A stretch of 64,000 nt of DNA from an uncultured Candidatus Saccharibacteria bacterium (GTDB taxonomy: Bacteria; Patescibacteriota; Minisyncoccia; Sungbacterales; HO2-52-23): positions 3,323 through 67,322 of the forward strand of contig CAZPDF010000005.1 in NCBI GenBank assembly GCA_964585475.1, given 5' to 3'. Under the pieces are notes generated by a model that was given only the letters and a program-made list of their open reading frames with translations, was not told the DNA's origin and did not search any database. Below, piece by piece: positions 4,384-59,972 of this stretch. Position numbers and translations under genes: made by a program. Position 1 is the first letter of the stretch. Each line of letters opens with the position of its first letter.

Positions 4384-4550
4384 GTGACACTTTTTATATT
4401 TCTTCCCAACAACGTTCTTACATTCTCAAGTATGTTGGTATGTTTTTATCTCCCATGACACATTTTATATTTCTTTCTGGACTATTCGCTTATTCGTACG
4501 AATAAGCGAATAGTCTCCCACATCGCATGACACTTTTTATATTTTTTTTC
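4381..4550. repeat. def-fmt intergenic array: three ~25-bp direct repeats (catgacacWttttatatttctt) at ~73-bp spacing plus a perfect 32-bp palindrome (4482-4513)
   Basis: Copies lie at about 4381, 4454 and 4526. The first contains the fmt ATG. The palindrome is ctattcgcttattcgta|cgaataagcgaatag. Confidence 0.7.
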
Positions 4551-21841: not shown

Positions 21842-23170
21842 TTAAAGATAATCCAGCGGATTTAAATAACCGTTAATCGGGGAAATAGGAACGGTCATAA
21901 TTGTGCCGCAGGTACGCGAGCGGATTTTTTCAATCCGAACCGCCTGGCTTGCGAATACTGTAAAGTGTAAATGCGGACCCGTTGCGTAGCCGCTTGCGCC
22001 GGAAAGGCCAATTGGCCCTCCCCTACTCACTTCTTGTCCCGAGCGAACGCTGATACCCGCAAGGTGTGCATACAATGTTGATAGATTATTTCCATGCCGG
22101 ATAAGAATCCATTTGCCGTAGGATGCTCTCCTGCAGGCAAGATCAGTATCCCCGACTGTTTCCACCGTTCCGTTGGATGCGGCAAAAACCGGCGTACCTT
22201 GCACAGCGCGAAAGTCAACTCCATTGTGTCCTTTGCCAGAATACCCCCCGACTGCGGCAAATGACGTATAGCCGAAGTATTGAGTGATACAATTTTTAAG
22301 ATCGCCTCCCTTGCTCCAACAGGAAGCAAGGGAGATATCCGGAAGCGGCCACCCCAAAACCCCTGTGCCCGTTGGAGGCAAGGATGCCGGATCAATGGTA
22401 ATGCGCATTTTTTCTTCAATTTCCCGGATTTCTTCTTCCAGCGCATTTCTCTTTTTCTCCCGATCGCGCAGGATCTCTTGGTATTTTTTCTCCTGACTTT
22501 GGGTGGCGCGAAGAAGATCGGATCTATCCTTTTTAGTGTTTTCCTGCAGGGTCCTTCGCGTACGCAATGAGTCCTCTAAATTTTCTAGTTCATCCTTTTT
22601 ATCTTCCGCCTCGGCTTTTTTAATCTGTAACTCATTCCGTAGAGTGCGCAGGGTATCGAGCGATCCAAGGATCTTTTTTTTGAGGAGCGCTGCATAATCA
22701 ATTTGCTGGAAGAAATCGGAAAGGAAACGGTTTTTGAGTAAGATTTCAAGGAGCGATTGCTGCTCGCTTTCCACGAACGATTGCATAAGATTGGCAAGTC
22801 CGAGGCGCAATCTTTGGATGGCAATTTCTTTTTCTCTGATTTCAAGGTCCAGGGTTTCAATTTCAAGTTCTGACTTTTGAATTTTCCGCTCGGTAAGGGA
22901 AATGTCTCTTTTTAGTTGCGCAATGGTGCGATCCACCCGGGCTAGCTCCTCTTTCAGGGTTTTCCCCATTTGTTGTTTCTCCGCAATTTCATCCCGGTAT
23001 TTTTTTGCTTCCTCCTCGAGTTTTTTGATCTCCTCGTTTTTAGCCGTAACCGATGTCCGCAGTTCTTCAAGCGTTGCCGCTTTACTGTATGCGGCCAAAA
23101 ACAACAAAGCGATGAGAAATATCGCTAAGGTAAGACATATTTTAGCAGTTCCATATCTCATCTTTTGCAT
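21842..23170 (-). CDS. M23 family metallopeptidase with N-terminal coiled-coil (EnvC-like)
   Basis: TM, a long coiled-coil, and a C-terminal LytM domain (GKGHNGVDFRA, LIRHGNNLSTLYAHL). Confidence 0.85.
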   Translation of the reverse strand: MQKMRYGTAKICLTLAIFLIALLFLAAYSKAATLEELRTSVTAKNEEIKKLEEEAKKYRDEIAEKQQMGKTLKEELARVDRTIAQLKRDISLTERKIQKSELEIETLDLEIREKEIAIQRLRLGLANLMQSFVESEQQSLLEILLKNRFLSDFFQQIDYAALLKKKILGSLDTLRTLRNELQIKKAEAEDKKDELENLEDSLRTRRTLQENTKKDRSDLLRATQSQEKKYQEILRDREKKRNALEEEIREIEEKMRITIDPASLPPTGTGVLGWPLPDISLASCWSKGGDLKNCITQYFGYTSFAAVGGYSGKGHNGVDFRAVQGTPVFAASNGTVETVGDTDLACRRASYGKWILIRHGNNLSTLYAHLAGISVRSGQEVSRGGPIGLSGASGYATGPHLHFTVFASQAVRIEKIRSRTCGTIMTVPISPINGYLNPLDYL

Positions 23171-23232
23171 TCATCATATCATTCTCTTGACAGCTTTTGA
23201 AATGTCCCGTTAAATGGGGTTAGTACCCGAAA

Positions 23233-23520
23233 ATGAGCGAGGAAACACTTATGGCAGGCGAACATACCGTAACAGTAACTCTACAAAAACCTCTCAAACA
23301 AGTCATTGAAGAAATTATTGCCGAAGATAAAAAATTCGGACGTTCTTATGATGAACTCTGGGCGGAGCTACGAAAACGTCTACCCTTGGCCGAATGGCCG
23401 ATTGGCCTAGTTCTTTCAGAGATTATCGAAGAACTTATCACTGATCGTAAGATAAAATTGTGGTTTGTCCAAGCCAAAGAAAATATAAACGTTACTATTG
23501 TTCGGTTTCTATTACGCTAA
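23233..23520 (+). CDS. hypothetical protein
   Basis: 95-aa ORF followed by a clear terminator. Confidence 0.35.
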   Translation: MSEETLMAGEHTVTVTLQKPLKQVIEEIIAEDKKFGRSYDELWAELRKRLPLAEWPIGLVLSEIIEELITDRKIKLWFVQAKENINVTIVRFLLR

Positions 23521-23526
23521 AATTAA

Positions 23527-23552
23527 TACGAGGCCTATCCTCGTATTTTTTA
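23527..23552 (+). terminator. rho-independent terminator
   Basis: The sequence is tacgagg cctat cctcgta tttttt. Confidence 0.6.
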
Positions 23553-23563
23553 TTTATGCAGAT

Positions 23564-23599
23564 TCACTAAAGTTTTGACGATCGTCAAAACTTTAGTGA
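23564..23599. repeat. perfect 36-bp palindrome tcactaaagttttgacga|tcgtcaaaactttagtga
   Basis: Seen directly between the terminator and the gltX 3' end. Confidence 0.8.
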
Positions 23600-23641
23600 C
23601 ATTGATATGCCAAAAACATTAGGACCGGGGTGTTCATGTTA

Positions 23642-25108
23642 TCATGTCTTATAAAAGTTTTTCGCTTTTGCTAGACGTTTCAGCGTTTCCTCGACTCCCA
23701 AAACCTCCATTATCTCAAACGGCCCCGGAGACGTTTTTTTGCCGGTGAGGGCAACGCGGAGAGGCCAGAGGATTTGTCCCCTATCCCCGCCTTCGCCCTT
23801 CAGGCTACGGCGGGCAAGCCCTCCCCCGATTTCTTCAAAGAAAGTTTTTTCAAGATTCACCTTATTGAAGTCCGACTTGGGTATGGCCGCTATGATCTGT
23901 AGAGATTTATCAAGCGAGGCACCAATTTCTTCATCCGTCATATTTTTCCAGCGCAAAAGTTCCTTATCATATTCGGGGGTTTTGAAAAAATAATCGGTCT
24001 TCGCTTCGAGTTCGGATAGTTTTTTCAACCGCGGCTGCTCAAGGGCTAGTATCTTTAAAACATAGCCCTGGGGCTTCTTGGCCGCCGGGAGAAAAGGGTG
24101 CGCCCATTTTAAGAGTTCCTCGGTGGATAAACTTCTAATGTATTCTGAATTCATCCAGTCGAGTTTCTGTACATCGAATATCGCGCCGGATTTCTGTACT
24201 CTACCCAGGGAAAATTTTCTAGTTAGCTCCTCTTTGGTGAAAATTTCACGATCATCTCCCGAGTTCCAGCCAAGAAGAACCATAAAATTTAAGAGCGCCT
24301 CTGGAAGATATCCCGCCTCCCGATATTCAATAAGGGAGGTTGCGCCGTGGCGTTTGGAGAGTTTGGAGCGGTCCGGGCCGAGGATTAAGGGAAGATGCGC
24401 ATACTGCGGCATTCTGAAGCCAAGCGTCTCGATAAGTAGCATCTGCTTAGGAGTGTTTGAAATATGATCTTCGCCGCGGATCACGTGCGAAATTTGCATT
24501 TCTTCATCGTCCACCACTACAGCAAAATTATAAAGAGGAACATCCGTGCGCTTAGCAATAGAAAAATCACCCAAAAGGTCTGATTCAAAACTAACCTCTC
24601 CGCGGACAAGGTCTTGAAATACGATTTTTCGTCCGGCAGGAGTTTTGAAACGGATAATATAATCCTCCTTGGCTTTAGTAAGAATTTCTGCTTCTTTCGG
24701 GTCGAGAGTTCTGTATTCACAAAGATGCAGGGGCGGTTTTTTGGCTTCGAGCAGTTTTGCTTTTTCCTCCTCAAGTTCTTTTTCTGAATGAAAACAAAAA
24801 AACGCCTTTCCTTCTTTACGGAGTTTCTCGCAATATTTTTTATAAGTTTCTATCCGCTCGCTTTGGCGGTACGGCCCGTATGGGCCGCCCTTTTCTGGAC
24901 TTTCGTCGGCCTCTATTCCTAGCCATTTAAGGCCTTCAAAAATATCCTTCTCGTATTTTTTATCCGAGCGCTCAAGATCGGTATCCTCAATACGCAACAC
25001 AAAAACGCCGCCATGTTTTTTGGCAAATAAATAATTAAATAATGCAGTCCTTGCAGTACCAACATGTAATGGGCCAGTTGGGCTTGGGGCAATACGTACT
25101 CTAATCAT
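23642..25108 (-). CDS. gltX: glutamyl-tRNA synthetase
   Basis: MIRVRIAPSPTGPLHVGTARTALFNY (HIGH) and KLSKRHG (KMSKS-type) motifs. The start is reassigned to the internal Met at 25108. Confidence 0.9.
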   Translation of the reverse strand: MIRVRIAPSPTGPLHVGTARTALFNYLFAKKHGGVFVLRIEDTDLERSDKKYEKDIFEGLKWLGIEADESPEKGGPYGPYRQSERIETYKKYCEKLRKEGKAFFCFHSEKELEEEKAKLLEAKKPPLHLCEYRTLDPKEAEILTKAKEDYIIRFKTPAGRKIVFQDLVRGEVSFESDLLGDFSIAKRTDVPLYNFAVVVDDEEMQISHVIRGEDHISNTPKQMLLIETLGFRMPQYAHLPLILGPDRSKLSKRHGATSLIEYREAGYLPEALLNFMVLLGWNSGDDREIFTKEELTRKFSLGRVQKSGAIFDVQKLDWMNSEYIRSLSTEELLKWAHPFLPAAKKPQGYVLKILALEQPRLKKLSELEAKTDYFFKTPEYDKELLRWKNMTDEEIGASLDKSLQIIAAIPKSDFNKVNLEKTFFEEIGGGLARRSLKGEGGDRGQILWPLRVALTGKKTSPGPFEIMEVLGVEETLKRLAKAKNFYKT

Positions 25109-25308
25109 GGGGAAAGAGCGGCCCGCCCCGTTAGATATTTGGTAAAACCAAAATCTAACGGGGTAAATGCAGTACCGATGTGCAGTGGGCCGGTTGGACT
25201 TGGAGCAATACGGCAACGAATGGTTGTGATTTCCTTCATGTCTTGAGCCTGATGAACAATAAGATTTCCGCGCATATCAGCGTTAAGCGGCATGGCAGGG
25301 AATAGCAA
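25105..25308 (-). other. upstream leader ORF duplicating the GltX N-terminus (..IRCRIAPSPTGPLHIGTA..), stop overlapping gltX ATG
   Basis: Tandem duplication of the gltX 5' end (25169-25239 against 25054-25108), separated by a ccccgttagat...atctaacgggg hairpin (25126-25163). The TGA stop overlaps the gltX ATG as ATGA. Confidence 0.5.
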
Positions 25309-25382
25309 TTAAGATCAAAGTTTGTGCCGCTTAGGTCCGCGTCAGATCCGCGGAGATGACTGTATGGATAGTATTCAGCATG

Positions 25383-26510
25383 TTATATCCTTTGGTGCTG
25401 GCCTAGCTTCAGGAGCTCTTTAGCAAGTATTTCTGCGGAGTCGACGCGGGCAAATCTCTGGGCGGTTTCGCGCATCTCCTGCATTTTTGGGGGGTTGGCA
25501 ATAAGTTTTCTTATTTCGGCCAGCAAGACATGCGGGGTCAAATTTTCCTCCTCAATTACCACCGTAGCGCCGGTGGCCGCATATTCGTACGCGTTCTTTC
25601 TTTGATGATCTTGGGCGGCGTTATGAAGCGGTATAAGTATGGAGGGTTTGCTCCAGGCGGCAATTTCATAAATTGAGGTTGCGCTTGCGCGGGAAACAAC
25701 TATCTCTGATAAGAGATAAAAAGCACGCAGTTCCCGCTCGTCAAGAAATCCAAAAGGATGATAGCGTTCTTTATGTGCAAATTCCAATACGACCCCCGCC
25801 TCCCCCTTGTTGTCTTCAAAGTTTTTCGTGCCGGTCTGGTGCAATACTTCAAATTCTTCGGTTAATTCCTTCAATATCGGTATGATAGCTTCGTTAATTT
25901 TTTCCGCGCCTTGCGAAGCGCCGATAAACCCAATGATCGGCAGACCGGATGATATATCAAGTTCGTTCCTGGCCTGTTCGCGGTTACCTCCAAGGATCCG
26001 TTTGCGGATTGGTATCCCCACCAGGGCGGTTTTGGATGCAGGAAAATATGAAAATGCTCCGGGGAATGCGACGCCGATGCGTTTGGCAAAATGGCCCGAA
26101 TAAAGACTAACTTTCCCAGGCACTGCATCCGAATCGTGGATTATGAGCGGGATCCGGAGAAGGCGCGCGGCAATGAGCGCCGGAAGCGCGCCGTAACCCC
26201 CTTTTGAAAAAACCGCATCGGGCATGATTAGGAACATGTTCCAAATCGCCCGGCAAGCAGCTAATGCGGTTTTGAATATATCCAGAAAATTCTGGAGCGA
26301 AAAGTAGCGGCGCATTTTACCGGAGTCCAGGGGTATAATGATTATTTGTTCCTCCTCGAGATCTGCTTTGGCAAAATCCGTCGGCCCCATGAAATATATT
26401 TCAAGATCCAAAATCCGCTCCTCCTCCGCGACTCGCTTGAGCTCGCGAATTATGGCCAGGATCGGAAAGATATGCCCTCCGGTGCCGCCGCCGGTGAATA
26501 GTATGCGCAT
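25383..26510 (-). CDS. murG: undecaprenyldiphospho-muramoylpentapeptide beta-N-acetylglucosaminyltransferase
   Basis: MRILFTGGGTGGHIFP N-terminus and a GT28 C-terminal domain. Confidence 0.9.
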   Translation of the reverse strand: MRILFTGGGTGGHIFPILAIIRELKRVAEEERILDLEIYFMGPTDFAKADLEEEQIIIIPLDSGKMRRYFSLQNFLDIFKTALAACRAIWNMFLIMPDAVFSKGGYGALPALIAARLLRIPLIIHDSDAVPGKVSLYSGHFAKRIGVAFPGAFSYFPASKTALVGIPIRKRILGGNREQARNELDISSGLPIIGFIGASQGAEKINEAIIPILKELTEEFEVLHQTGTKNFEDNKGEAGVVLEFAHKERYHPFGFLDERELRAFYLLSEIVVSRASATSIYEIAAWSKPSILIPLHNAAQDHQRKNAYEYAATGATVVIEEENLTPHVLLAEIRKLIANPPKMQEMRETAQRFARVDSAEILAKELLKLGQHQRI

Positions 26511-26530
26511 TTTTCTTCTCAGCGCACAAT

Positions 26531-26627
26531 TTCAGCGTAGTAATCAGCGTCTTATCAGCGGTTTCCAAGGTTAGTCCGCTGATTTAACGCTGATCCGGCA
26601 CGCTGATCGAGCGCTGAATAATCAGGT
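26531..26627. promoter_or_regulatory. array of heptamer CGCTGAT (x4 direct, ~11-bp period) and inverted ATCAGCG (x2-3) between murG and ftsW
   Basis: Direct copies at 26577, 26588, 26601 and 26612. Inverted copies at 26543 and 26554. The helical-turn spacing suggests a regulator binding array. Confidence 0.4.
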
Positions 26628-27710
26628 GTGTTTTGATATATTCAATAATACTCCAATGCTGGCCAGAGTCATAACCAGCGAAGTCCCGCCGTAGCTGATA
26701 AAGGGCAGAGGAATGCCGGTTAAAGGAAGGAGTCCGGAAATAGCGGCCATATTTATGAATGCCTGAACCGTGATTTCCACCGAAAGACCGGCTGCCAAAA
26801 GTTTGCCGAAGGTATCGGGGGCGCGTTTGGCAATAAGAATTCCGCGCCAAAGAAGTAAGGCAAAAAGACAAATTAAAGCGACCGATCCGATAAATCCGAG
26901 CTCCTCCGTAAAAATAGCAAAAATAGAATCGCCGAGGGGCTCGGGCAAGTAACTATATTTTTGTATCCCTCGGCCAAACCCCATACCCCAAAATCCGCCG
27001 GAACCGATGGCGATGGAGGCCTGCGTAATATGATATCCGATGCCTTGGGGGTCAAGCGAGGGGTTTAAAAATACCAAAACCCTAGCGATACGGTACGGAG
27101 CCATCTGGATAAGAAAATATAGGGCGCTTAAGCCAAATACTCCCAAGGTAATAATTTGCGATATCCTTCCGCCCCCGAGAAAATAAAGTATTCCGGCGCT
27201 CGCGACAACTACGCCCAGCGTTCCAATGTCTGGCTGCATGATTAAAAACATTCCCACGATCGAGAGCATGGTAGCAAAAGGGAGTAGGCCGTAGGAGATG
27301 CTGGTTAAATCCTGCCGCCTGGCCGTAAGCCAGCTGGCGAGATACGCAATAAAAGAAAATTTCAGAATTTCCGACGGCTGAAAGGTAAAACCGCCTAGTT
27401 TAATCCAGCGCCGCGCTCCCCCGTAAGAGAAACTTAAATCCGGAATGAAAAGAAGGGCCAGGAGCAGGAAGGAAATAAGCATAAGCGGCACGGCCAATTT
27501 TCTCCATACTCTGTAAGGGATGCGGGAAAAAAGAAGAAGCACCGGAATTCCAATGAGGCCGCCGTAAAGAAGTTGTCGAAGAACGTAGTAGCCGATCGAA
27601 CCAAAGTTTTTTTGTGCAAGAGCGACCGAAGCAGAGGCAAGGATTAAAAACCCGGCGCCGAGTAGCGCCAAAGTAATATAAAAAAGAGGTTTATCCGCGG
27701 TATGCGGCAT
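26622..27710 (-). CDS. ftsW: peptidoglycan glycosyltransferase FtsW/RodA (SEDS family)
   Basis: Ten TM helices and SEDS conserved segments (GGARRWI, PSE, QPDIGT). Confidence 0.9.
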   Translation of the reverse strand: MPHTADKPLFYITLALLGAGFLILASASVALAQKNFGSIGYYVLRQLLYGGLIGIPVLLLFSRIPYRVWRKLAVPLMLISFLLLALLFIPDLSFSYGGARRWIKLGGFTFQPSEILKFSFIAYLASWLTARRQDLTSISYGLLPFATMLSIVGMFLIMQPDIGTLGVVVASAGILYFLGGGRISQIITLGVFGLSALYFLIQMAPYRIARVLVFLNPSLDPQGIGYHITQASIAIGSGGFWGMGFGRGIQKYSYLPEPLGDSIFAIFTEELGFIGSVALICLFALLLWRGILIAKRAPDTFGKLLAAGLSVEITVQAFINMAAISGLLPLTGIPLPFISYGGTSLVMTLASIGVLLNISKHT

Positions 27711-27722
27711 GTTTTTCCTTTG

Positions 27723-27885
27723 AGGTCATCTCTAAACTCCCCTTTCTACTACAACCGCCTAATTTCGGCTGCGGCTTCGTCCGTCCTCCTTGGCGTATAT
27801 TGCCCATATACGCCTTCGTCGTCCGTCCTCGCCTCGCTCGAAATTAGACAGTTTCGTTACGAAAAAGAGTTTGGAGATGACCTCC
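27723..27885. repeat. nested inverted-repeat element spanning ftsW-murD spacer and the last codons of murD
   Basis: Outer IR gaggtcatctc / gagatgacctc (27723-27733 and 27875-27885). Inner IR cctaatttcg / cgaaattag. Direct cttcgtccgtcct x2. Central ggcgtatat-tgccc-atatacgcc hairpin. Confidence 0.7.
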
Positions 27886-29221
27886 TTAAATTATGAACTG
27901 CCGAAACGAATTGTGCTCCGCGGTCAAACTCATTTAAAAAAAGTCCAAAACTTGCCGCCCCGGGAGACAGCAATACATAATCCCCTCTTTCGGCAAGCCC
28001 GTATGCTAGTCGAACGGCATCCTGCATTCTCGGCGCGGTATGAAGCGCCTGATCCCGCTTCCCCGATAGATATTTTTTTAGCTTATCTGTTGCGTTTCCC
28101 GGCAAAAATATTGTGATATCTACCTTTTCTTTGATAGTATCAGCCAGATCAGAAAAGTTAAGTTTTTTGTCCGATCCGCCGCAAATAAGAATTAATTTAT
28201 GCCCTTTTGAAATTTTTTCTCGGAAGCGTTTTAGAGCTGCCATTGTTGCTTCTGGAATGGTTGCGGTCGTATCATTGATAAAATGAACCCCATCCATAAT
28301 CGCTATTTGCTCTTCTCGGCCCTCCAGGCCCCTGAAGGAGCGCAATATTCTTTTCACGGTTGCCTCGGGCACGGAAAAGTGTTTGGCAACCGCCAAGGCG
28401 ATGGCCACGGATGCACGGTAGTGCGCCCCGAGTTTCTCATCCACCAGCGGTATAAATTTTTTTGGCAGGCGTGCCCAAATTATGCGTGAGCGGGCACTTT
28501 GCGCCATGGCTCGGACGGTTTTATCGCCCGGATTCGCAAAAAAGTAATCCCCCTTTTTCTGGTAAGAAAAGACTGTTTTCTTCGCACGCAGATATTCAGC
28601 AAGTGAACCATGCCAATTCAGGTGATCACGGAAAATATTCGTGAGGACGGCGATAGGCGGGCTCTTTCTTTCTTGCGCAAGGTCTTGCAGTTGGAAACTC
28701 GATAATTCAAGTACTGCCCAGTCACCCGCTTTCATCAGCGGAAGAAATTCAAGTACTGATTTGCGTATGTTTCCGCCGAGAAACACCCGTCGCCCTTTTT
28801 TAGCGCGTAGAAACCTCCAGATGAGGAAGGCAGTGGTTGATTTTCCTCGGGTGCCGGTTATTCCGATAATTTTCCCCGGGCATAAATTGAAAAAAATTCC
28901 AACGTCGCTCGTTATTGGAATTCTATGCGATCTTGCTAATTTTAAAAAGGGAGAGCTTGGCGGAACGCCTGGGTTTTTAATAATTAAGTCCTGCGATAAA
29001 AAATCTTTGCGGCGATGGCGGCCCAACACATAGTGAATGCGGCGGTAACGTGAAAGTTGTCGTATGGATTGGCGGAGAGATTTCGGGTTTCGTAGGTCGG
29101 TAACGGTAATTTCGGCCCCCAAGTTAGCTAAAAATTTAGCTGTGCCCGCTCCTCCGCCATGGAGTCCTAGCCCCATCACTAATATGCGCTTTCCGCGAAA
29201 ATCTATCGTACGCCGTTTCAT
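27857..29221 (-). CDS. murD: UDP-N-acetylmuramoylalanine--D-glutamate ligase
   Basis: ILVMGLGLHGGG and GITGTRGKSTT P-loop with Mur ligase domains. Confidence 0.9.
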   Translation of the reverse strand: MKRRTIDFRGKRILVMGLGLHGGGAGTAKFLANLGAEITVTDLRNPKSLRQSIRQLSRYRRIHYVLGRHRRKDFLSQDLIIKNPGVPPSSPFLKLARSHRIPITSDVGIFFNLCPGKIIGITGTRGKSTTAFLIWRFLRAKKGRRVFLGGNIRKSVLEFLPLMKAGDWAVLELSSFQLQDLAQERKSPPIAVLTNIFRDHLNWHGSLAEYLRAKKTVFSYQKKGDYFFANPGDKTVRAMAQSARSRIIWARLPKKFIPLVDEKLGAHYRASVAIALAVAKHFSVPEATVKRILRSFRGLEGREEQIAIMDGVHFINDTTATIPEATMAALKRFREKISKGHKLILICGGSDKKLNFSDLADTIKEKVDITIFLPGNATDKLKKYLSGKRDQALHTAPRMQDAVRLAYGLAERGDYVLLSPGAASFGLFLNEFDRGAQFVSAVHNLRRSSPNSFS

Positions 29222-43885: not shown

Positions 43886-44146
43886 CCCGTTTTTTCCTTA
43901 AGCAGGTTATTTGATATTTTACGATATTTTCTGATATAATGCAATAGCAGGAAATTCGGGCCTATAGTTCCGACCTTCATTAAAGTTATATAGGAAGTCG
44001 AGAATCCACGATTTGACCAAATGAAGACTTGGTCAAATCGGGACTTAGTGGCAGTGTCCCGATTCAATTTTGATTGAATCGAGGATGCTCGATTTTCAAA
44101 GAAAATCGGCACATCCGGTTTGTTCACCCTCCCACCTTTTATGTTA

Positions 44147-44217
44147 GGGCTCATAGCTTAGTGGTAGAGCACCCGGTTTGCATCCGGGAGATCGGGGTTC
44201 GATTCCCCGTGAGTCCA
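44147..44217 (+). tRNA. tRNA-Ala (anticodon UGC)
   Basis: Acceptor gggctca/tgagtcc with a G3:U70 identity pair. Anticodon stem cccgg/ccggg with loop ttTGCat. T-arm cgggg-ttcgatt-ccccg. Discriminator A. Confidence 0.85.
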
Positions 44218-44342
44218 TTGGTAAAGGTGGGAGGGCAAGTCCGGTAGATGGGAGTTCCTCCGATTTTGTCTGCGGTATTACCGCAGCTACAAAATCGAGA
44301 GTCCTCGATGTGGTAAATCAAATCAAAGATTTGAACCACATC

Positions 44343-44362
44343 GGGAGATTCCCCGTAGGTCC
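44343..44362 (+). repeat. partial direct duplication of tRNA-Ala 3' end (gattccccgtaggtccat vs gattccccgtgagtccat)
   Basis: Seen directly 125 bp downstream of the tRNA. It is att-site-like. Confidence 0.6.
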
Positions 44363-57327: not shown

Positions 57328-57457
57328 AAAACGTGCGGCCAAGAAAAAGCGTAGAAAGTACCCCATAAGCGGGCATTCGGTTTTTCTCATTCAAAAACTG
57401 CAACACAAAACGCGTCGGTGATCACCGACGCGTTTTGTAAAGTTTTATGGTTTAATG

Positions 57458-59926: not shown

Positions 59927-59972
59927 AAAAGAATCCTAGTCAGAATCCTAGGATTCTGACTAGGATTCTTTT
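59927..59972. repeat. perfect 46-bp palindrome aaaagaatcctagtcagaatccta|ggattctgactaggattctttt
   Basis: Seen directly, immediately 3' of the dnaK stop. It may act as a bidirectional terminator or attenuator. Confidence 0.8.

Follow-up and report, generated by a model that had tools for sequence, protein, structure and literature searches.

What is a second, diverged copy of the first codons of gltX doing just ahead of the gene itself? The question is raised by a 64-kb stretch of contig CAZPDF010000005.1, from an uncultured Candidatus Saccharibacteria bacterium, which we refer to throughout as the window. In it, the gene for glutamate-tRNA ligase (GluRS) is preceded by a partial copy of its own 5' end, a hairpin, and a stop codon that overlaps the gltX start. 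The reading that we find moderately probable, from comparison of four diverged loci, is that an old partial duplication has been kept as a translated upstream open reading frame (uORF) that would serve as a relay, coupling onto gltX. The best protein-search matches of the window GluRS are the GluRS of Candidatus Sungbacteria and Parcubacteria, with identities of at most 76%, and an exact-sequence look-up of the protein returned no record.

The two copies are recognizable as a direct repeat of 45 nt (25168-25212 versus 25052-25096; 82% identical) with a spacing of 116 nt, and a match of 37 of 45 positions anywhere within the 551-nt region would arise by chance with a probability of about 1e-8. 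Taken in codon register, the repeat is 54 nt long, runs from ATT to GCA, and is 76% identical; its translations, IRCRIAPSPTGPLHIGTA upstream and IRVRIAPSPTGPLHVGTA downstream, share the pattern I-R-x-R-IAPSPTGPLH-x-GTA. An earlier note on this DNA had described the duplicated segment as including the gltX ATG. The repeat was confirmed, but the start codons are not part of the homology: the upstream ATG lies six codons ahead of the repeat, and the downstream ATG immediately precedes it.

From the upstream copy, a uORF of 44 amino acids (MKEITTIRCRIAPSPTGPLHIGTAFTPLDFGFTKYLTGRAALSP) runs across the hairpin to a TGA that shares the sequence ATGA with the gltX start (Table 1). The earlier note had proposed just such a frame, together with a longer version of it. 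Both can be read in the sequence, the longer one from an in-frame TTG, and the arrangement recurs in three related but much diverged metagenomic contigs, L001 (from Logan), L125 (from JGI), and L127 (from ENA), so that there are four carriers, two of them on short contigs. The ATGA overlap is also found in L125 and L127, and L001 has an in-frame fusion instead. All four keep a start codon for the uORF (ATG in the window, L125, and L127; TTG in L001), and none has a stop ahead of the gltX ATG. The uORF ATG lies 1 to 2 nt past the murG stop in L125 and L127, and the TTG of L001 overlaps the end of murG; only in the window are murG and the uORF ATG set apart by an extra stretch of about 143 nt (25240-25382, minus strand), which the other three carriers do not have. 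The repeat period is 116 nt in the window, 108 nt in L001, 104 nt in L125, and 107 nt in L127. The spacer that separates the upstream copy from the gltX ATG is 59 nt in the window, 47 nt in L125, and 50 nt in L127, all 2 modulo 3, so that the overlap is kept although the hairpin insert is 42 nt long in the window and 31 nt long in L125 and L127; the tail behind the hairpin differs by 1 nt, which compensates for the difference in insert length. The 51-nt spacer of L001 gives the in-frame fusion.

The substitutions that separate the four upstream copies are those expected of a coding sequence. Their minimum numbers at codon positions 1, 2, and 3 are 7, 2, and 26 (binomial P = 9e-7), a pattern shared by the functional downstream copy (6, 2, and 21); the ratio of the proportions of nonsynonymous and synonymous differences (pN/pS) is about 0.1 to 0.2 in both copies, with saturation at third positions. 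The two copies within L125 agree at 88% of first and second positions but at only 6% of third positions, and thus differ almost solely synonymously, which rules out that the upstream copy has been decaying neutrally since a recent gene conversion. We also rejected gene conversion as the reason for the conservation, since the copy differences within genomes are themselves nearly all synonymous. An antisense open reading frame (ORF) was likewise rejected as the source of the codon periodicity, since the sole antisense frame that fits has stops in L125 and L127. By this pattern, the upstream copy is under purifying selection of the coding type and evolves like a translated gene. The constrained core of the leader peptide amounts to about 12 residues from the beta1-HIGH segment. 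The upstream copy of L127 has Cys in place of an invariant Arg (244 of 244 GluRS sequences), and the Arg of GTAR is lost from the upstream copies of the window and L125; judged by these residues, the upstream copies are not working enzyme N termini. The C-terminal halves of the four leader peptides are unrelated in sequence and are read in different frames.

Between the upstream copy and the gltX start lie the hairpin insert and a short tail. The window hairpin has a perfect 11-bp outer stem and an inner stem, and the 91-nt region around it has a predicted folding energy of -31 kcal/mol (z = -4.0). A hairpin is kept in all four carriers (predicted folds with z = -4.0, -3.4, -5.6, and -6.1), with two compensatory pairs; at the site of the window's longer and different hairpin, L001, L125, and L127 have a 27-nt palindrome, CCCCCACACYAAAWTTTRGTGYGGRGG. 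The earlier note also needs correcting on the spacer, which is not unrelated sequence: in its 3' part, CGG GCC GCT CTT is a relic of the gltX codons R-A-A-L. The tail reads CGG GCC GCT CTT TCC CCA TGA in the window, CGG GCC GCA CTT TCC TAT GA in L125, CGT GCC GCG CCT TAT TAT TAT GA in L001, and, in L127, CGT GCC GCG CTT TTC AAT TAT G, that is, R-A-A-L-F-N-Y. Hairpin and tail are 80 to 90% conserved while nearby synonymous sites are saturated.

The L127 locus is also informative about how the arrangement may have arisen. With the 27-nt palindrome and one flanking CGTG removed, it gives a 28-residue reading that is colinear with GluRS, and its period becomes 107 - 31 = 76 nt. We infer an old partial tandem duplication followed by insertion of the palindrome. 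About 76 nt of the gltX 5' end (about 25 to 28 codons) would have been duplicated in tandem and out of frame; at the junction (..AAT TAT/G ATT..), the Tyr codon TAT of the first copy and the next base would have formed the present ATG, with the second copy starting as MIRVR, and the first copy would later have received the palindromic hairpin element directly behind G-T-A-(R). The duplication junction and the hairpin insertion site are identical in all four carriers, which argues for a single origin, and synonymous sites are saturated both between copies and between genomes, which argues that the duplication is old. The suggestion of a recent duplication scar, made in the earlier note, therefore stands as to the tandem duplication and falls as to the age.

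Carriers are few. A nucleotide self-alignment of the upstream region against the gene start, run on all loci, caught the window and L001 only; it missed L125 because the copies there are saturated at synonymous sites, and hence translated motifs were used for screening. Applied to 57 GTDB species representatives and 64 JGI metagenome loci, these gave one further carrier, L125. Among the 120 best homologues, P0004 (530 aa), encoded on contig L001, is the sole protein with an N terminus doubled in frame. The fourth carrier, L127, is the contig of P0013 and was picked solely because P0013 starts with MIRVR and is the sister of P0004, not by way of an intact motif. A motif-independent search for the tail-plus-start pattern returned the known loci only; a protein search with the double-copy N terminus of P0004 returned only short single-copy fragments and missed P0004 itself, so that it was blind to further carriers. 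About 125 other gltX loci are single-copy, including the closest relatives L059 to L062, L070, L124, and L128. Related genomes without any duplication, which the earlier note would have taken as counting against it, are thus the majority, with L001, L125, and L127 as the exceptions. In the single-copy relatives, gltX usually begins 0 to 25 nt past the murG stop, which places the upstream copy where the gene ancestrally started. P0004 and P0013 are each other's best match (GluRS, 76% identical; MurG, 84% identical), and since L001 and L127 are mutual closest relatives, the structure is shared by descent across saturated synonymous divergence. An assembly artifact is ruled out by four independent assemblies with diverged sequences.

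Table 1. Features of the gltX leader and its surroundings in the window
Feature	Position	Strand	Details
gltX, glutamate-tRNA ligase	23642..25108	-	488 aa; ATG 25108-25106; stop at 23642; best matches carry PF00749 + PF19269
Downstream (functional) repeat copy	25052..25105	-	gltX codons 2-19, IRVRIAPSPTGPLHVGTA
ATGA overlap	25105..25108	-	gltX start ATG 25108-25106 overlapping uORF stop TGA 25107-25105
Tail	25109..25125	-	CGGGCCGCTCTTTCCCC; relic of gltX codons R-A-A-L-(F-N-Y) of the upstream copy; -17..-1 of gltX start
In-frame insert, 42 nt	25126..25167	-	TTTA + 38-nt hairpin (25163-25126), CCCCGTTAGATTTTGGTTTTACCAAATATCTAACGGGG
U1, upstream copy of gltX 5' end	25168..25239	-	uORF codons 1-24, MKEITTIRCRIAPSPTGPLHIGTA; ATG 25239-25237; repeat proper 25221-25168
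Possible 5' extension of uORF	25240..25308	-	In-frame TTG 25308, ATG 25293, ATG 25275
murG (context)	25383..26510	-	gltX directly downstream of murG

How might such a leader work? Ribosomes would start at the ancestral initiation site, which adjoins the murG stop in three of the four genomes. Translation of the upstream copy would unwind the hairpin and the G+C-rich tail, which would otherwise mask a gltX start that lacks a Shine-Dalgarno sequence, and the ribosomes would terminate at AUGA and reinitiate on gltX. In L001, a difference of 1 nt would turn the same arrangement into an in-frame N-terminal extension. Such a relay would account for the retention of a start codon and of an open frame, for length changes that preserve the frame, and for the overlap of stop and start. 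The earlier note had proposed that leader translation melts the hairpin and couples into gltX; with recurrence, purifying selection, and frame-preserving spacers behind it, this appears to be the best reading of the locus.

The properties of the gltX start are consistent with this proposal. Bacteria of the Candidate Phyla Radiation mostly do without Shine-Dalgarno sequences, and they are not culturable. In the window, where leaders are typically rich in A+T, a motif of this kind precedes just 9 of the 35 long ORFs. It is missing from positions -25 to -1 of gltX, a segment whose G+C fraction of 0.72 ranks first among 53 ORFs (median, 0.40). The stable hairpin ends 17 nt upstream of the ATG; the predicted pairing of the AUG itself varies between genomes.

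Natural operons of the trpE-trpD type contain translationally coupled cistrons with overlapping stop and start codons. Examples nearer to a leader are the small ORF cbrX, which is coupled to cbrA (PMC6591292), and the synthetic "bicistronic design" leader used in PMC5995908. As in these coupled leader cistrons, the short cistron ahead of gltX ends on or beside the main start, and passage of the ribosome would melt structure around a start that may be weak by itself. Unlike them, the gltX leader appears to descend from a tandem duplicate of its own gene's first ~24 codons and to have diverged since, and its peptide is evidently under purifying selection, with a palindromic element embedded in the frame. 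A literature search found no account of such a gltX leader, nor of palindromic elements in the Candidate Phyla Radiation. If the relay reading is correct, the locus illustrates how a tandem duplication that is out of frame can persist within an essential gene: the junction would have supplied a new start codon, and the first copy, left orphaned, would have become a relay ORF on which the gene now depends. An essential gene would thus have given rise to its own uORF and been locked into keeping it. The locus would also offer a rare view of translation control in the Candidate Phyla Radiation that is supported by comparative genomics.

Several points weigh against a relay. Both the translation of the uORF and the dependence of gltX on it are things that we infer from sequence comparison. 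In the window the uORF lies 143 nt from murG, and the chain from murG is broken there. A relay needs an open frame and no particular peptide, and it leaves the conservation of the amino acids unexplained. The patchy distribution requires several losses or old horizontal transfer: the single-copy loci L070 and L060 (MurG, 81% and 79% identical, respectively) are closer to L001 and L127 than the window is (65%). The upstream-copy type (IRCR versus VRV) groups the window with L001 and L125 with L127, whereas the tail sequence instead groups the window with L125 and L001 with L127; the GluRS tree is star-like, and the order of gains and losses is not given by its branching. There is also an ascertainment bias, since L001 and L125 were found through an intact motif and decayed versions could be missed.

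The alternative that survives best, which we nevertheless consider unlikely, is a transcriptional device, in which the hairpin is a terminator, a pause site, or an mRNA-stability element resembling repetitive extragenic palindromes (REP) between murG and gltX. A ribosome translating the uORF would block the hairpin, which would give translation-dependent read-through or attenuation and could coexist with coupling. The predicted fold of the hairpin is very stable, the same 27-nt palindrome stands right after the stop of an unrelated gene in L004, and long perfect palindromes occur at gene ends in the window, for example at 23564-23599 just 3' of gltX. However, no U-tract follows the stem (CGGGCCGCUCUUUCC comes after the hairpin), a terminator scan makes no call, and no alternative antiterminator pairing is conserved in the four carriers. 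Nor does the leader look like a sensor of its cognate amino acid, since each of the four peptides has 0 to 1 Glu and 0 to 1 Gln codons. With so few such codons, no U-tract, and no antiterminator found, the amino acid-sensing attenuation that the earlier note had raised fares poorly.

Leader-peptide attenuation is well known in aminoacyl-tRNA synthetase and amino acid operons (pheST/pheM, trp, his). The gltX leader resembles these attenuators in combining a short leader ORF with a hairpin and, as in pheST, in lying upstream of a synthetase gene; it differs in having no run of Glu or Gln codons, no U-tract terminator, and no alternative antiterminator. Synthetase genes are also regulated by structured RNAs, namely translational operators of the thrS type and T-box leaders. 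Like these, the gltX hairpin is a structured RNA immediately upstream of a synthetase start codon, but unlike the thrS operator its loops (AAAUUUU and UUU) lack a YUC triplet resembling the tRNA-Glu anticodon. An Rfam covariance search of the leader at E <= 10 gave only a chance match (E = 2.8) to a Wolbachia small RNA, and thus no T-box or other leader.

The palindrome itself invites comparison with the extragenic palindromes of the REP and REPIN types (PMC3337134, PMC12306157). Those of the gltX leaders are similar in being 27 to 38 nt long, G+C-clamped, and imperfect, and in having a near-identical copy after an unrelated stop in L004. REP and REPIN elements have many copies per genome, mostly extragenic, and an associated RAYT transposase. 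Within the contigs covered here, those of the gltX leaders differ in that only this one extra copy was seen, with none elsewhere in the window, and in that the element lies inside an ORF. In L004, CCCCCACACYAAAWTTTRGTGYGGRGG is found at 4423-4449, directly after the stop of an unrelated ORF of 173 aa and between direct TGAA repeats, which suggests that the 27-nt palindrome is a member of a family of terminator-like or REP-like dispersed elements in these genomes. Neither the window hairpin nor its tail has a second copy in the window, the window type of hairpin is absent from all 132 loci, and the 27-nt palindrome is absent from viral contigs. A 1.9-kb Parcubacteria contig, L111, contains two copies (907-928 and 1484-1505) of a sequence AAATGAAAAG-CCCCGCGGAAATTTCCGCGGGG-GA, which shares the design of the gltX-leader palindrome (CCCC..AAATTT..GGGG). 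The window also holds perfect loopless palindromes with arms of 17 to 23 bp at 23564-23599, 4480-4515, 57405-57438, and 59927-59972, the first of them between the gltX stop and a convergent ORF; these may be bidirectional terminators without U-tracts or protein-binding sites.

Slightly less probable again is that duplication and hairpin are a nonfunctional scar, that is, neutral leftovers ahead of a gltX that is translated independently from its own ATG. Most relatives do manage without the structure, single-copy genes of the MIRVR type with A+T-rich leaders exist (L128 and L130), and some substitutions in the upstream copies have no counterpart among 244 GluRS sequences, as described above for the invariant Arg in L127 and the GTAR Arg in the window and L125. 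A neutral relic should, however, randomize all codon positions, and the observed changes do not; a start codon is retained at all four loci, with no stop before the gltX ATG and with frame-preserving spacers, and the hairpin and tail have remained conserved beside saturated synonymous sites.

The same selection that argues against a scar could mean that the conserved 12-residue peptide is itself the product, a possibility that we regard as doubtful and place a little lower than the scar. The peptide could carry a nascent-chain signal at AUGA, or it could be a micropeptide reporting on, or interfering with, the folding or partners of GluRS; as a functional sensor or effector, it would set the reinitiation of ribosomes on gltX, and this too we hold to be improbable to the same degree. 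What speaks for a regulatory peptide is that purifying selection acts on the peptide sequence, beyond the open frame, and that the antisense explanation is excluded by the stops in L125 and L127. On the other side, the constraint covers only about 12 residues, and the C-terminal halves are unrelated and in different frames. We know of no mechanism or precedent for a regulatory peptide of this kind, which also counts against it, and, to our knowledge, self-mimicking autoregulation at the peptide level has no described case among the aminoacyl-tRNA synthetases. That a 12-residue copy of the HIGH segment is under selection is nonetheless a testable oddity, and if the peptide is functional it would represent a new type of synthetase regulation.

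Recurrent acquisition is very unlikely. Here the module of hairpin, tail, and ATG would have spread horizontally or arisen repeatedly, and the upstream copies would be recent relics of the resident gene. The patchy distribution and the conflict between upstream-copy type and tail type would fit, as would the resemblance of the upstream copies of the window and L001 to the N termini of the single-copy proteins P0003 and P0007. The shared junction and insertion site point to a single origin instead, and the downstream copies are as saturated synonymously as the upstream ones, with no recent transfer visible.

In the bypass of phage T4 gene 60, ribosomes cross a gap of 50 nt between matched codons, with a stop after the take-off codon. 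The gltX leader is similar in that direct-repeat codons flank a gap with a hairpin at its 5' edge. Least likely of all, and barely credible to us, is that ribosomes here hop one period (104 to 116 nt) from a G, T, or A codon before the hairpin to the same codon downstream, making a GluRS with the upstream N terminus: this would explain selection for a GluRS-like peptide, the hairpin does begin right after the putative take-off codons, and codon identity within genomes is 7/12 for the last three repeat codons versus 16/60 elsewhere (Fisher P = 0.04, post hoc and weak), but the take-off codon is not followed by a stop, the downstream ATG and MIRVR start, which single-copy relatives also use, are conserved, the L127 upstream copy would be catalytically defective with Cys at the invariant Arg, and the hop would span more than double the distance of any bypass known to us.

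The coupling of gltX to its upstream neighbor may have taken other forms among the relatives. The gene order murD-ftsW-murG-gltX-(small ORF)-M23 peptidase is found at 21842-29221 of the window, in L060, L061, L127, L128, and L131, and in many Parcubacteria, so that the synthetase gene is apparently embedded in, and linked translationally to, a cell-wall and division operon. In L129 (215-355), a C-terminal extension of MurG by about 40 aa reaches an ATGA overlap with a gltX start of the MIRVR type and may be another way of keeping the murG-gltX coupling. L129 was tried as a decayed relic of the leader and rejected, its similarity to the four leaders being nonsignificant (P = 0.17 to 0.34). L123 and L124 were rejected as decayed leaders as well; their long murG-gltX gaps hold unrelated sequence or an inserted gene. 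Upstream of the leader in L125, just the last 13 codons of murG (VIIAREILKIGLH*) are left at 780-822, fused behind an unrelated Cys-rich ORF, which places a rearrangement breakpoint about 40 nt ahead of the old murG stop. In the window, a CCGCG..CGCGG hairpin lies at 25337-25357 in the spacer between murG and the uORF, where no promoter of the sigma-70 type was called.

Elsewhere in the window, an inverted repeat of 13 nt, CCCTCCCACCTTT and AAAGGTGGGAGGG, encloses tRNA-Ala(tgc) (44147-44217) within a region (44009-44343, plus strand) for which Rfam returned the tRNA only. At least six small hairpins flank the tRNA there, each with CGAT(T) at its start and (A)ATCG at its end, and the region has the appearance of a repeat array or of a single large structured RNA.

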